A stretch of 64,000 nt of DNA from Gammaproteobacteria bacterium. GTDB taxonomy: Bacteria; Pseudomonadota; Gammaproteobacteria; UBA4575. A program made the translations under genes and the position numbers. Positions 6,111-10,507 of the stretch are shown piece by piece (position 1 is the first letter of the stretch; each line of letters begins with the position of its first letter). The notes below the pieces were generated by a model that saw only the letters and a program-made list of their open reading frames with translations, did not search any database and had not been told where the DNA came from. The DNA is taken from contig CBDCTA010000022.1 of NCBI GenBank assembly GCA_965221955.1, positions 160,001 through 224,000 of the forward strand. Direction: 5' to 3'.

Positions 6111-6407
6111 ATGTCATTAAACACATCGATTTCTGTATTAAGTGCGCTCATTAGTTGGGCATTAGCGATCTTTTTAGGAATACAATTACTATCTGGCACC
6201 TTTGACGGACGTACATGTCAAACTTCGTGTGTGCAGACCGTGTTTTGGGTTTCTTTTGCAATCGCCTTGGTAGGCTTAGTTTTTAGTGTTGGAGGAATTT
6301 CTGTTGGCAAATCAAACTTACTCAAAACGCTTTCACTTTTAGCTTTAGTGGGTTTAGCAGGAATTTATATCACGACAATCTTGATTGGAAATTTTAATAT
6401 TCTTTAA
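6111..6407 (+). CDS. Hypothetical 3-TM membrane protein with a CxxxC loop
   Basis: 98-aa ORF with three hydrophobic helices and TCQTSC. Confidence 0.6.
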   Translation: MSLNTSISVLSALISWALAIFLGIQLLSGTFDGRTCQTSCVQTVFWVSFAIALVGLVFSVGGISVGKSNLLKTLSLLALVGLAGIYITTILIGNFNIL

Positions 6408-6517
6408 TGTAAAAAAGATTTAACACTTCGTAGTTAAATTTACATATAAAATTATAGATCTCTTTATTCTTACACATAAGTGTATATTCAATTTATTAAT
6501 TAAAACGGGAGTGACTG

Positions 6518-6850
6518 ATGGCTGCAAAATTCGAATTATATAAAGACAAAAAAGGCGAATTTAGATTTAGACTAAAATCCAGCAATGGCGAAAATATTCT
6601 TGCAAGCGAGGGATATAAAGCCAAGACTAGTGCAAAAAATGGCATTGAGTCTGTCAAAAAGAATGCTAAAGATGCAAAACGCTTTGAAGTTAAGAAATCA
6701 AAAAGCGGAAAGCATATGTTTAATTTAAAGGCAGGAAATTCTCAGGTCATTGGCACATCACAAATGTACAAAACTGAAGCAGCTTGCAATAACGGGGTTA
6801 AGAGTGTGAAAACCAACGCGCCTAAAGCGAAAGTAGAAGATCTTTGTTAA
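6518..6850 (+). CDS. yegP: YegP / UPF0339 (tandem DUF1508) protein
   Basis: Two repeats (FRFRLKSSNGENILASEGY...NGIESVK and FNLKAGNSQVIGTSQMY...NGVKSVK); GGGAG RBS. Confidence 0.9.
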   Translation: MAAKFELYKDKKGEFRFRLKSSNGENILASEGYKAKTSAKNGIESVKKNAKDAKRFEVKKSKSGKHMFNLKAGNSQVIGTSQMYKTEAACNNGVKSVKTNAPKAKVEDLC

Positions 6851-6886
6851 TAGTTCACATTTCTGAATAAGAGCTACAACTAGAAC

Positions 6887-6936
6887 AACTGTCATGGATG
6901 ACGGAAGTACTAGAAACGCAAGATTCAATTTCTAGC
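6887..6936 (+). repeat. CATGGATG double-hairpin REP-like unit, type 2
   Basis: ctgtc-ATGGAT-gacgg hairpin, then aagta, then ctagaaa...tttctag hairpin. Homologous to the reverse complement of the units at 8247-8344. Confidence 0.7.
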
Positions 6937-7004
6937 GAGTTGCAACAAATACAAAAATCAGTGGTTTGTTTGTGCAGGTTGGGAAGTTCAAATCAAGCAT
7001 TCAT

Positions 7005-7080
7005 ATGTCCGCTTTCGATCCAAAGTGTGAGCCCATGGATGGGCGAATAAGATGTGCAACAAGGATGTTGCATCAGATTC
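7005..7080. other. Palindromic 11-6-11 recombination-site-like sequence A, right arm interrupted by a REP-like unit
   Basis: ATGTCCGCTTT-CGATCC-AAAG[insert]CAGATTC. Confidence 0.55.
7025..7075 (+). repeat. CATGGATG double-hairpin REP-like unit, type 1
   Basis: gccc-ATGGAT-gggc and tgcaaca-AGGA-tgttgca hairpins; 38/51 identical to the reverse complement of 8378-8428. Confidence 0.75.
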
Positions 7081-7098
7081 AATATTCCTTTTAATAGA

Positions 7099-7126
7099 AT
7101 ATTCGCTAACAACCCAAAGCAGACAT
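7099..7126. other. Palindromic 11-6-11 recombination-site-like sequence B (uninterrupted)
   Basis: ATATTCGCTAA-CAACCC-AAAGCAGACAT, 28 nt upstream of the deiminase ATG. Confidence 0.55.
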
Positions 7127-7154
7127 TTAGACCCCTTCTGCTTCAACAATAATA

Positions 7155-8207
7155 ATGAAAAACATTGTTCTAATAATATTAGCCATTTTTACTCTAATTT
7201 ATAATAATTCAATGGCTAATGAATCAACTAAAGATCGTAATGCTCAAAAGGAATTGATCGTACTTTCAGCACCAATTACAGATGATCCTTATTACATGGA
7301 TGTGGCAGATACTATCTTAGATTTTCATATTCAGTATGTTCAACAAATTGTAAGCCATGACAATGTTTTGATCTTTGTGGATGAGGGGGCCTACGATCGA
7401 TATGTGGATGAGATTGGTGAAGATAAAGTTGTTATTGCACCAATGTCCGATATTTGGATGCGTGATTTTGGATTATCAAATGCAAATAACCCGGTCATGT
7501 TTCGATATACCGCAGAAGGTCAAGGGCGCGGTGAAAAAGGTCAGCGTGCTGCAGATGCTGTACAAAAACAATTAGCCATAATTCTCGAAGAGTCGGATAT
7601 TACATATCTTGAAACAGATTTATTGAATGATGGGGGTAATTTTGTTGATGATTATGCCGGTAACGTAGTAATCAGCAGAAAATTCCTGCGTGATAATAAG
7701 TTAAGCGAAGAGCAAGCGCGCGAAAAGCTGCGTGAATTAACAGATGTTAAGAATATTGCCTTCATCGAGTCTGATGAGCAAGGAGGGTTAGAGCATGCAG
7801 ATGGGGTGGTTGCCTTTGTAGATACCAATACACTCATTATTAATACTTACGAAGATGACCCTGAGTATGCAAAAGAGCTAAGAGCTGATCTTGAATTTGG
7901 TCTACCAGGTGTAATTATTCACGAAATTATTACACCATATGATGACAGTAAAATCTATGATCAACGTTTTGGGTCTGCTTGTGGGCTTTATACCAATACT
8001 TTAGTAACCCCGCATAGGGTCTATCTTCCTCAATTTGGAATTCCCGAAGATAAGATTGCTATCGATCAAGTACGCGCTGCAACGACACGTGAAGTAGTGC
8101 CAGTCTCATCATATCAAGTATGTTCAATGGGTGGAGGGGTGCGATGTATGTCTTGGCAACTACGTGGTGATAACGCAAATGCACTGCTAAAATATTTCGA
8201 AAAATAA
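7155..8207 (+). CDS. Secreted agmatine deiminase / Porphyromonas-type peptidylarginine deiminase family protein
   Basis: DIWMRD, DGGN, EHADG and GGGVRCMSWQ (Cys nucleophile) motifs; N-terminal signal-peptide-like sequence. Confidence 0.85.
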   Translation: MKNIVLIILAIFTLIYNNSMANESTKDRNAQKELIVLSAPITDDPYYMDVADTILDFHIQYVQQIVSHDNVLIFVDEGAYDRYVDEIGEDKVVIAPMSDIWMRDFGLSNANNPVMFRYTAEGQGRGEKGQRAADAVQKQLAIILEESDITYLETDLLNDGGNFVDDYAGNVVISRKFLRDNKLSEEQAREKLRELTDVKNIAFIESDEQGGLEHADGVVAFVDTNTLIINTYEDDPEYAKELRADLEFGLPGVIIHEIITPYDDSKIYDQRFGSACGLYTNTLVTPHRVYLPQFGIPEDKIAIDQVRAATTREVVPVSSYQVCSMGGGVRCMSWQLRGDNANALLKYFEK

Positions 8208-8229
8208 ATGTAGTTTGATTATTTCTTTA

Positions 8230-8354
8230 ATGTCTGCTACTGGCCGACAGAAATTTGCTCCTCGCCAATTGCTCCATGCATTGCTCTACCTCCTACATCC
8301 ATGTAGTCGTGCAATTTCTGCACTTCCACCCTCCATGGCGGTCGAAGCGGACGT
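8230..8354. other. Palindromic 11-6-11 recombination-site-like sequence C, interrupted by nested REP-like units
   Basis: ATGTCTGCTAC-TGGCCG-[insert]-GAAGCGGACGT, 22 nt after the deiminase stop. Confidence 0.55.
8247..8344 (-). repeat. Two nested type-2 REP-like units (inner unit 8263-8310)
   Basis: Outer cagaaatttgctcct[...]gcaatttctg-cacttcc-accctccatggcggtcg; inner cgccaattgctccatgcattgctc-tacctcc-tacatccatgta-gtcg has the same layout. Confidence 0.7.
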
Positions 8355-8377
8355 TTTAAGATCGATTATCTTTAACT

Positions 8378-8428
8378 TGTTACTTCGTCCCTGATGGACA
8401 TCATATTCGCACTTCCCTGTGCTCACAC
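8378..8428 (-). repeat. REP-like unit, type 1, overlapping the recG stop codon
   Basis: Minus strand gtgtgagcacagggaagtgcgaatatgatgtccatcagggacgaagtaaca aligns without gaps to 7025-7075. Confidence 0.7.
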
Positions 8429-10507
8429 CTGCCCAAATTCAATTGACTTTCCTAACCAACGTTGGATCACTGCATCAACATTATGTGGGTATTCTTCTAT
8501 GAGCTGTTTTGCTGTTTCTTGTACTAAAGGAATTAAATCTTGGTCACGCATAATATTGGCAATACGTAATTGCAGCATGCCGGTTTGACGTGTACCTAGT
8601 ACTTCACCAGGACCGCGTATTTCTAAATCGACTTGCGCAATCTTAAAACCATCGTTGGTGTTGCGCATAGTGTCGATGCGTGTTTTAGCATTTTCAGTTA
8701 ATGGTGGATTAAATACCAATACACAACTGCTTTCTTCTGTACCACGGCCTACACGTCCGCGTAATTGATGCAGTTGTGCTAAACCTAAACGTTCAGCATT
8801 TTCGATAATCATCAAACTGGCATTGGGCACATCGACACCTACTTCGATTACTGTGGTCGCAACCAATAAGTCAATTTTCTTAGCTGAAAAATTTTGCATC
8901 ACGGCATCTTTTTCTTTACCTTTCATGCGTCCATGCACTAAACCCACTTTTACGCCACGCAATAATTGGCTGAGTTCACGGTATACATCTTCTGCTGCCT
9001 GACACTGCAAGGCTTCAGATTCCTCTACCAAAGTACACACCCAATACGCTTGTTGGCCATTGCGACAGGCATTGGCTACACGATCTACCACTTCTTGGCG
9101 CCGCTCCATTGGAATTGCGATTGTACTAATGGGCTTTCTTCCTGGAGGCAATTCGTCAATAACAGAGTAATCTAAATCCGCATAGGCAGTCATTGCTAAG
9201 GTTCTTGGGATCGGCGTTGCAGTCATAATCAGTTGATGCGGATGATTTCCGTCCTGTATACCTTTTTCGCGCAACGCTAAACGTTGGTGCACGCCAAAGC
9301 GGTGTTGTTCATCGATAACCACTAAAGCTAAATTTTTAAATTCAACACCTTGTTGAAATAAAGCATGCGTACCTACGATGGCATTTGCAGTACCGGTAGC
9401 AATGAGTTCTTTCATTTCATTGGCTTTACTTGTAGTGAGTTTTCCTGACAGCCAAGCTAGCCGAATACCTAGCGGTTCCAACCAATGTGAAAAATTACGT
9501 AAATGTTGTTCAGCTAAAATTTCGGTAGGCGCCATCACTACGGCTTGATAGCCCGCTTCGATCACCTGCAAACATGCTGCAATTGCAATTAGAGTTTTTC
9601 CGCTGCCTACATCCCCTTGCACTAAACGCAGCATAGGGGAATCATTTGTTAAATCTGAAAATACAGTGTCGATTACACGTTGCTGAGCATTCGTCAGTTC
9701 AAATTCCAGCCCAGCTAAGAGTTTTTTATACAGTTGTTTGTTAGCCTGAATAGCAATGGCCGGCTGCTTTTGCATTTGCAGCCTAAGTTTAGACAAACTT
9801 AGTTGTTGCGCTAATAATTCTTCAAAAGACAAACGTCGTTGCATTGCATGTTTGCCTGAGGCAAGTGCTTCTACATCGGCTTCAGGTGGTGGACGATGTA
9901 CAAATTTCAGCGCTTCAATAATACAAACAGTTTGACCATCAATCAGTGGCGGCGTAGGCAATAAATCTAGTTGAGGTGCTTCATTTTGACCAATCCACTG
10001 CAAAGCTTGAGACGTGAGTCGCCGCAAACTAAGCTGATGTAATCCTTCAGTGGTGGCATAAATTGGAGTGAGATGATCTTCAACTTTAGCGGGTTCATCT
10101 TGGTGCAACAATTCATATTCAGGGTGCACCATTTCTGGGCCTTTAATTCCCTGCCTAATTTCACCAAAACATCTAATTTTACTGCCTCGAGAAAGGTTCT
10201 CTCGTTGTGCCTTGTTGAAATAAAAAAAACGCAGTAACACTCTGCCCGTGCCATCATCAACGCTCACTAGTAGCATACGTCGTTTACGAAACACCACTTC
10301 ACTGTGTTCAATATTACCGATCACTACACACTCTTCTCCTGCACGCAGTGCTGCAACGGGACGGATACGCGTTCGATCTTGGTAACGAATAGGCAGGTGG
10401 AAGAGTAGATCTTGCACTGTGTAGATCTGTATACGTTGCAAGCGCTCTGCAACTTTGGAACCTACACCTTTTAGTGCAGTAACCTCTGGAAAAGATTCTT
10501 TACTCAA
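8423..10507 (-). CDS. recG: ATP-dependent DNA helicase RecG
   Basis: RLVQGDVGSGKT, DEQHRFGV, MTATPIPRTL, QLHQLRGRVGRG. Confidence 0.98.
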   Translation of the reverse strand: MSKESFPEVTALKGVGSKVAERLQRIQIYTVQDLLFHLPIRYQDRTRIRPVAALRAGEECVVIGNIEHSEVVFRKRRMLLVSVDDGTGRVLLRFFYFNKAQRENLSRGSKIRCFGEIRQGIKGPEMVHPEYELLHQDEPAKVEDHLTPIYATTEGLHQLSLRRLTSQALQWIGQNEAPQLDLLPTPPLIDGQTVCIIEALKFVHRPPPEADVEALASGKHAMQRRLSFEELLAQQLSLSKLRLQMQKQPAIAIQANKQLYKKLLAGLEFELTNAQQRVIDTVFSDLTNDSPMLRLVQGDVGSGKTLIAIAACLQVIEAGYQAVVMAPTEILAEQHLRNFSHWLEPLGIRLAWLSGKLTTSKANEMKELIATGTANAIVGTHALFQQGVEFKNLALVVIDEQHRFGVHQRLALREKGIQDGNHPHQLIMTATPIPRTLAMTAYADLDYSVIDELPPGRKPISTIAIPMERRQEVVDRVANACRNGQQAYWVCTLVEESEALQCQAAEDVYRELSQLLRGVKVGLVHGRMKGKEKDAVMQNFSAKKIDLLVATTVIEVGVDVPNASLMIIENAERLGLAQLHQLRGRVGRGTEESSCVLVFNPPLTENAKTRIDTMRNTNDGFKIAQVDLEIRGPGEVLGTRQTGMLQLRIANIMRDQDLIPLVQETAKQLIEEYPHNVDAVIQRWLGKSIEFGQV

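Follow-up and report, generated by a model that had tools for sequence, protein, structure and literature searches.

The yegP–recG locus and its deiminase module

We analyzed a 64,000-nt stretch of a marine gammaproteobacterial genome (hereafter the window; its genome, G000, is a 2.69-Mb assembly in 29 contigs), in which a gene for a deiminase-like protein lies between a yegP-like gene and recG. A first-pass annotation of positions 7005 to 8354 had described this gene as a single-gene cassette closely bracketed by recombination-like sites, and the genome-wide data support that description. The boundaries belong to a family of 28-nt imperfect palindromes with two variants, P1 and P2 (together, P sites), which enclose open reading frames (ORFs) in the order P2-ORF-P1. 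The window deiminase is one such P module at a hotspot, and the sites at both of its ends have been hit by site-targeting elements, designated E1 and E2. The features of the locus are as follows.

6518–6850, + strand: yegP-like DUF1508 gene, the conserved left flank of the slot (Pfam PF07411, E 5e-45)
6880–7004, + strand: leader ending in GCAGGTTGGGAAGTTCAAATCA, ahead of the first site; the same leader and motif stand before the site of the empty locus in the relative G010
7005–7025, + strand: partial site A, the initial 21 nt of a P2-type site, right arm absent
7026–7098, + strand: E1, a dispersed repeat of 73 nt, rich in hairpins, that has inserted within or ahead of P2
7099–7126, + strand: site B, a complete P2-type 28-nt site (ATATTCGCTAACAACCCAAAGCAGACAT), the 5′ boundary of the module
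7155–8207, + strand: cargo gene for a deiminase-like protein of the PAD_porph family, 350 aa long and with a hydrophobic leader at its N terminus (Pfam PF04371, E 3e-29)
8230–8246, + strand: left part of site C (P1 type, positions 1 to 17), which bounds the module on its 3′ side
8247–8339, + strand: E2, a hairpin-rich dispersed repeat of about 93 nt in the site centre, with GGCCG/GGTCG flanks
8340–8354, + strand: right part of site C, GGTCGAAGCGGACGT
about 8355–8430, − strand: inverted, diverged E1 copy capping the right end and overlapping the recG stop codon at 8423–8425
8423–10507, − strand: recG, the conserved right flank of the slot (Pfam RecG_wedge, DEAD, Helicase_C)

The three related sites of the first-pass annotation survive in part. 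Site B is complete, stands 28 nt ahead of the ATG at 7155 and has 2 mismatches to the palindromic search pattern proposed there; site C begins 22 nt past the deiminase stop codon, with its halves parted by the 93-nt insert; and site A is just a 21-nt left part. The reconstruction of A was wrong: the "CAGA" read as its right arm is part of E1, which reaches as far as B. The suspected repeat insertions in A and C were borne out as E1 and E2, and site A, E1 and site B together make up a recurrent 122-nt unit. Within the window alone the search pattern matched B only, and 9 of 100 shuffled sequences gave an equally good match, which is not significant. A repeat finder run on the window paired 7025–7085 with 8368–8428 as E1 inverted repeat arms (72% complementary), exposing an inverted copy that the first-pass annotation had overlooked. 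The last codon and stop of recG (8423–8430) lie inside the inverted E1 copy, a junction also present in G014 and not in G010. An Rfam search of 6400–8700 returned zero matches at E values up to 1. The deiminase scored 46.9 bits against the agmatine deiminase equivalog, far below its cut-off of 381.8 bits.

Two variants of one site bound small genes across the genome

Applied to the whole genome with up to 2 mismatches, the same pattern gave 144 forward and 142 reverse matches, while its reversed control gave 0 and 0. A centre-anchored search resolved 173 sites, comprising 83 P1 and 90 P2 copies. Both share arms of the form ATGWCYGCT and AGCRGACAT in a 9-10-9 layout, and what had been taken for variable 6-bp spacers proved to be a central 10 nt of two conserved types, ATTGGCCGAA in P1, which is a near-perfect 28-nt palindrome, and AACGACCCAA in P2. 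The enrichment of the motif at the edges of small accessory ORFs and arrays, predicted from the window, is seen genome-wide.

The two variants occupy opposite ends of genes. P1 follows a same-strand stop codon in 67 of 80 intergenic copies (median gap, 11 nt; 5 opposite), and P2 precedes a same-strand start codon in 61 of 84 (median gap, 28 nt; 12 opposite). Neighbouring sites no more than 130 nt apart are co-oriented P1-then-P2 pairs in 27 of 31 cases, with start-to-start distances of 73 (12 cases), 83 (8), 82 (2), 72 (2), 59 (2) and 71 nt (1). The 93 pairs lying 131 to 2500 nt apart include 57 co-oriented P2-then-P1 pairs, 25 pairs of the same type and 5 of opposite orientation. Eleven arrays of at least 4 sites hold 112 of the 173 sites; a further 45 occur in pairs or triples and 16 are singletons. 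Eight arrays are fully co-oriented (23/23 in two of them), and the remaining three hold one opposite site each. Modules therein run head to tail and are joined by a 31- to 55-nt spacer, and modules also stand alone between housekeeping genes. Such isolated P2-ORF-P1 modules are common; isolated P1-spacer-P2 doublets with no ORF are rare. A site at both ends was found for 56 ORFs, with a median length of 120 aa (range, 62 to 388 aa). A Pfam scan of the array on contig C5 took in 10 ORFs, two of which lie outside the array; five of the eight cassette ORFs scanned had no family above threshold, and the other three encode an M23 peptidase, a Rieske protein and a Macro-domain protein.

Spacers come in three discrete lengths, 31, 45 and 55 nt, and contain a conserved GGTTGGAATCAAT-like motif (e.g., L197:704–748), which is found again ahead of the first site in lone modules (window 6975–7004) and in the empty slot of G010. 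We considered the spacer as a promoter (TTGGAA, 17 nt, and nAAAAT overlapping the start of P2) and P1 as a terminator, and consensus scans did not support this. At locus L004 the scan found 10 promoter-like sites versus 13.9 expected, with a single match at a junction, and in the window it found none at the sites and no T-run after P1.

These arrangements bear on a purely regulatory reading, under which a dimeric regulator or silencer of horizontally acquired genes would bind the sites as operators and DNA movement would not involve them. A 9-10-9 palindrome with individually conserved arms and the fixed distance of P2 upstream of ORFs would suit such operators. However, P1 sits after stop codons, the simple promoter scan picked out no promoter beside P2, and the presence/absence and duplication breakpoints described below coincide with the sites, which makes this reading very improbable.

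Each arm retains its own consensus, and 37 of the 70 unique P2 copies have an A opposite an A at positions 4/25. The arms showed no significant pairing covariation in the genome. Single sites fold at −0.6 to −3.3 kcal/mol (z about −1), no better than shuffled sequences. The P1-spacer-P2 composite of 87 to 111 nt folds at −13.5 kcal/mol (z −3.4). An attC site is an imperfect hairpin of about 57 to 141 nt with RYYYAAC and GTTRRRY boxes at its ends. Pairing of P1 with P2 in a long attC-like hairpin was rejected, as contingency tables for positions 4/25 and 6/23 showed no association.

The composite nevertheless invites comparison with integrase-less integron arrays (CALIN), in which it would act as an unusual attC. 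The likeness extends to co-oriented arrays of short, mostly unknown ORFs, an imperfect-hairpin joint of about 100 nt after each, strain-variable content and the absence of an adjacent integrase. Against it, the fold is a trivial outcome of shared palindromic arms and shows no P1:P2 covariation, the outer ends of the composite have no AAC/GTT boxes, and the joints are conserved in sequence besides structure, unlike those of integrons. Lone modules, moreover, carry P2 and P1 at their ends and no composite. Searches for the integron integrase IntI were unfavourable. The best matches to TIGR02249 in G000 reached 83 bits versus a cut-off of 265 and are XerD and XerC; the closed genomes G001, G010, G014 and G019 have 62 to 182 P sites and no IntI; and only 3 of 36 family genomes encode IntI, one of them with a single P site. 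In G015 and G028, which have genuine intI genes, the adjacent arrays contain no P sites. We consider the CALIN explanation largely refuted and the least probable of those weighed here. The earlier claim that the sites are not attC holds, and the accompanying claim that they are not dif is taken up below. The integrons of G015 (L171, G015:C29:1–20000) and G028 (L172, G028:C9:388000–407999) are classical, with intI beside a divergent small-ORF array, and both adjoin the same conserved gene block.

The two inserts of the window locus recur throughout the genome in association with P sites. At a coverage of 60% or more, E1 (73 nt) has 9 genomic copies and E2 (about 93 nt) has 7; counting all matches, E1 occurs at 13 places and E2 at 11. 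Seven of the nine E1 copies shown, the window copy included, are preceded by a partial 21-nt P2 ending in ...CCAAAG and followed by a full P2; an eighth, on contig C17, follows a partial P1-type site, and P1 shows the same structure on the opposite strand. Partial and full sites resemble each other most within one E1 copy and are identical at C29:132256/132350. As at recG, E1 also stands inverted behind terminal P1 sites at other places in the genome. E2 enters after ...GG(C/T)CG at the site centre and stops before the same pentamer. E2 is thus bordered by a 5-nt repeat of the site centre, and E1 is accompanied by a 21-nt site duplication. No transposase for E1 or E2 was found. Each element has one polarity, E1 entering P2(+) and P1(−) and E2 entering P1(+) and P2(−), and therefore P1 is treated as the inverted counterpart of P2. 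Therefore, from this polarity and the P2-ORF-P1 order, we infer that each module lies between inversely oriented sites, whose orientation alternates along the arrays.

Gain, loss and exchange of modules at the sites

Modules recur in unrelated surroundings, and gains, losses and exchanges of genes have their breakpoints exactly at P sites. The M23-peptidase module at C5:756–1534 matches an isolated module on contig C26 with 85.6% identity over 780 nt; the match spans P2 position 8 to P1 position 27, and the flanks on both sides are unrelated. A 358-nt P1-to-P1 unit is common to C11 and C5. The allelic contigs C14 and C23 have flanks 99.0 to 99.5% identical and differ in their cassette sets, with 5 or 6 cassettes on C14 and about 17 on C23 between a 114-aa ORF and an RDD-family gene by xerD. 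Contig C10 and its allelic counterpart C29:132–136 kb likewise differ in cassette sets between flanks of 98.7 to 99.7% identity. At all aligned junctions, identity ends at a site. One P1 is flipped between alleles (C14:5857 versus C23:12285); the idea of a hairpin-telomere (flip-flop) origin was dropped because perfect-palindrome centres are absent among the common variants. The contig pairs C14:1–16000/C23 and C10/C29:123675–138671 resemble two strains of one population that were co-assembled, and a CheckM-type contamination of 4.3% fits such strain heterogeneity.

Public metagenomes added partial views of the locus. Nine runs in 5 studies were listed, none of them RNA, and the contigs of 4 runs were compared. 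Contigs from two studies carry the deiminase-slot arrangement in pieces; in the 4 runs no contig spans the cassette or shows an excision or circle joint, although contigs cannot reveal rare forms. Contig depth in run X1 was 53.7 at E2 versus 3.6 in most other bins.

The slot between yegP and recG is variable among relatives. yegP was found in 9 of the 15 genus genomes searched, G000 included. The predicted relative with yegP, a single site and recG and no gene between them exists: in G010 the same leader, ending in GCAGGTTGGGAAATTCAAAGTTA, is followed by one P2-like site, and the end of recG comes 22 nt later. Other relatives have different occupants, namely, a P2-like site, a 161-aa ORF and P1 in G006; a 290-aa ORF followed by a P1-P2 doublet in G009; other cassettes in G002; a 182-aa ORF in G003, whose 54% homolog in G000 sits inside another P module; and two other ORFs in G014, where an inverted 73-nt element abuts recG. 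The deiminase is not conserved in this position. The sole ortholog found among 36 relatives (71% identity) is that of G010, which carries it at another place and without sites; G012 has a fragment interrupted by stop codons, and the other 14 matched places, in 13 genomes, are paralogs of 22 to 32% identity. The first-pass annotation had named syntenic conservation without sites as evidence against a cassette, and the deiminase lacks such syntenic conservation.

Beyond the genome, the pattern (up to 2 mismatches) occurs in all 14 genus relatives, with 1 to 198 copies each, in 26 of 36 family genomes, and with 41 copies in one genome from another family. The exact 22-nt sequence of centre plus arm was present in more than 116 stretches of named records among the matches listed, whose G+C content ranges from 38 to 65%. 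Alpha-, beta- and gammaproteobacterial records are represented, and the listed matches include Pseudolabrys, other Xanthobacteraceae, Hyphomicrobiales, Maricaulaceae, Kiloniella, Sphingomonas, Lysobacter, Frateuria, Noviluteimonas, Woeseiaceae, a Coxiellaceae metagenome-assembled genome (MAG), betaproteobacteria and one Udaeobacter MAG. These foreign sites are clustered and co-oriented. Single copies were found on plasmids of Klebsiella variicola, Pantoea, Xanthomonas and Polaromonas; the plasmid BLAST search gave no Sinorhizobium or Agrobacterium matches, and a 32-nt P2 query found no match in complete Escherichia coli genomes. When the phylum was sampled evenly, 14 of 400 other genomes contained exact arms and 1 of 400 matched the control, so the site family is patchy in the phylum and not universal. 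Viral contigs contained the 22-mer in just 16 stretches, at least 10 of them matching within about 500 nt of the stretch end, as expected if the repeat breaks assemblies.

Candidate mechanisms of module movement

The best explanation, to which we assign a probability of roughly 55%, is a family of P2-ORF-P1 modules acted upon by a trans-acting, sequence-specific recombinase or transposase at the P sites. The deiminase would then be one of many small gene modules bounded by two variants of one 28-nt palindrome, and P2 and P1 would be the double-stranded recognition and crossover sites of the enzyme. Double-stranded recognition is proposed because each arm keeps its own consensus without covariation, the hairpins are poor, the sites are conserved across classes and E1 and E2 insert with strict polarity. 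Judged from the searches described, the enzyme would be neither an integron integrase nor a REP-associated tyrosine transposase (RAYT; REP, repetitive extragenic palindrome) and probably not XerCD. E1 and E2, targeting the same sites, would have inserted into A and C, perhaps crippling the window copy.

Several results weigh against this explanation. The first concerns the enzyme. Profile searches of G000 found no match for IntI, Y1_Tnp, IS110, rve, DDE_Tnp_1 or Transposase_31, although a 29-contig assembly can miss insertion sequence copies. The closed genome G010, with 107 sites, has XerD, XerC and one phage-type integrase as its only tyrosine recombinases, and no recurring recombinase was found within the 8-kb surroundings of 80 foreign loci. 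The integrase clade expected to accompany the sites did not appear, either in the profile searches of family genomes or among the tyrosine recombinases of G010. Second, a 1,059-bp stretch between two P1 sites of C14 corresponds to one hybrid P1 in C23, and in this sole readable hybrid the switch from one sequence to the other falls between site positions 4 and 10; the exchange does not map to the central 6 bp and also fits homologous recombination. Third, positions 6 and 23 of P2 covary at loci of other taxa (Fisher p 0.0015), which leaves room for a hairpin role. Finally, the enterobacterial and Xanthomonas plasmid records have one site each, and in the Klebsiella variicola and Xanthomonas records that were opened the site is unannotated and has no visible module. 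When the 1,866 ORFs from the 80 foreign loci were clustered, the top cluster was ABC_sub_bind, present at 16 of the 80 loci. ABC_sub_bind (PF04392) is also the commonest site-adjacent ORF family, partly as fragments, at the beta- and alphaproteobacterial loci L077, L058 and L063.

The recombinases that are present in G000 comprise one large serine recombinase, one phage-type integrase and canonical XerC and XerD, the last two by equivalog scores. This brings in an explanation of the kind proposed for Acinetobacter pdif modules, in which XerC and XerD would drive the modules and P1 and P2 would be unusual dif-like sites. The 28-nt length permits an 11-6-11 geometry, the sites around each module are inverted and alternate along arrays, the Xer proteins are, besides one phage-type integrase, the sole tyrosine recombinases of the site-rich G010, and an array adjoins xerD in G000, G010 and G014. 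However, the genome has its own canonical dif-like site at C4:59807 (− strand), identified by means of the E. coli dif consensus. The XerD arm of this site agrees with that consensus at 11/11 positions, while the P arms share only 5/11 and 4/11 positions with the C4:59807 site by hand count, and its inner arm motif is absent from them. The first-pass statement that the sites do not resemble dif therefore stands. XerCD is nearly universal, and the sites are patchy in the phylum. No array lies beside xerD in G001 or G019, and the adjacency elsewhere amounts to one syntenic event among close kin. Overall, Xer-driven movement is improbable. The notion of the xerD-side array as a platform fails in the same two genomes. 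A small P-site cluster at C4:63577–65790 lies 4 to 6 kb from the dif-like site.

The main rival requires no dedicated enzyme. Under it, the P sites would be selfish or structural repeats of the type of REPs and bacterial interspersed mosaic elements (BIMEs), and genes would be swapped by homologous recombination after transfer from kin, with the 28- to 100-nt repeats or the flanks serving as portable homology. Like REP/BIME and REPIN/RAYT repeats, P sites are short extragenic imperfect palindromes that number from tens to hundreds, frequently form doublets and adjoin variable genes. They are also targets of other small elements, as E1 and E2 show, and REPs are known targets of insertion sequences; the dRS3/NIME repeats of Neisseria and "minimal mobile elements" offer a further likeness. 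The lack of a dedicated enzyme in G000 and G010, the readable hybrid, whose exchange does not lie at the core boundary, and the flanks of about 99% identity between allelic contigs, which permit flank-mediated replacement, all favour this rival. Repeats of this class without a transposase exist: Di Nocera et al. (2013, PMC3733652) describe CGTC-tagged REPs, mainly of alphaproteobacteria, with an external CGTC/TGTC tag, an 8- to 9-bp stem starting with AT, a 4- to 5-nt loop and a 3-nt tail. On these features P sites agree with them only in part: they share a 9-nt arm that starts with AT and the lack of a transposase, but their TGTC is internal to the arm, and the gap between arms is 10 nt versus the 4- to 5-nt loops.

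Other evidence does not fit REPs. Single P sites form no stable hairpins, their arms show no pairing covariation in G000, and the recurring unit is the ORF module; doublets occur almost exclusively between the ORFs of arrays, and lone modules are common. The duplicated C5/C26 unit ends exactly at sites. Homology alone needs neither strict 5′/3′ polarity nor two fixed subtypes, and exact conservation across classes and from 38 to 65% G+C argues for sequence-specific recognition. Features of RAYT systems are lacking as well: Y1_Tnp had no match in G000 and turned up in a single genus genome out of 14 and in 6 of 36 family genomes; at the 6 Y1 loci inspected, P sites never flank the gene. On balance we regard the homology-based rival as unlikely, although more serious than the other alternatives.

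Enzymatic movement at P sites thus remains the preferred explanation, and a more specific version of it can be stated tentatively, at odds clearly below even. P1 and P2 would be the crossover sites of a previously undescribed, IntI-free cassette system spread across alpha-, beta- and gammaproteobacteria, in which each gene is framed by two variants of one asymmetric 28-nt site, the first promoter-proximal and the second terminator-proximal. A trans-acting enzyme would move modules into and out of numerous chromosomal landing pads, reshuffle them there and mobilise E1 and E2 as well; it may be a host protein that has so far had no link to recombination. Text searches of the literature found no published description of P sites. 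Their closest counterparts may be the pdif modules of Acinetobacter plasmids, which likewise have 28-nt sites, small accessory modules between inversely oriented sites, orientation alternating in arrays, small site-targeting elements and shuffling between contexts. Unlike pdif sites, P sites do not resemble the host dif, are chromosomal, exceed 100 per genome and occur in several proteobacterial classes, and adjacent P modules are joined by the conserved 31- to 55-nt spacer instead of sharing a site.

If the P sites are true recombination joints, they would provide a second general route, besides integrons, for stockpiling and exchanging single bacterial genes, with dozens of chromosomal slots instead of one platform and with sites conserved in sequence across distant proteobacteria. 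Such a route would account for some of the small "islets" that vary from strain to strain between the housekeeping genes of uncultured marine and soil bacteria, and the 28-mer would serve as a sequence tag for accessory genes and as bait for the enzyme. If the sites act as portable homology only, they would still be a clear case of repeats organising the turnover of accessory genes.

Two observations lie outside the site family. Near-duplicate contig pairs without P sites also occur in the assembly (C1/C25, C12/C13, C19/C3, C24/C6 and C8/C18). Upstream of yegP in the window, a 98-aa ORF (6111–6407) with no Pfam or NCBIfam family is kept in the same position in relatives.

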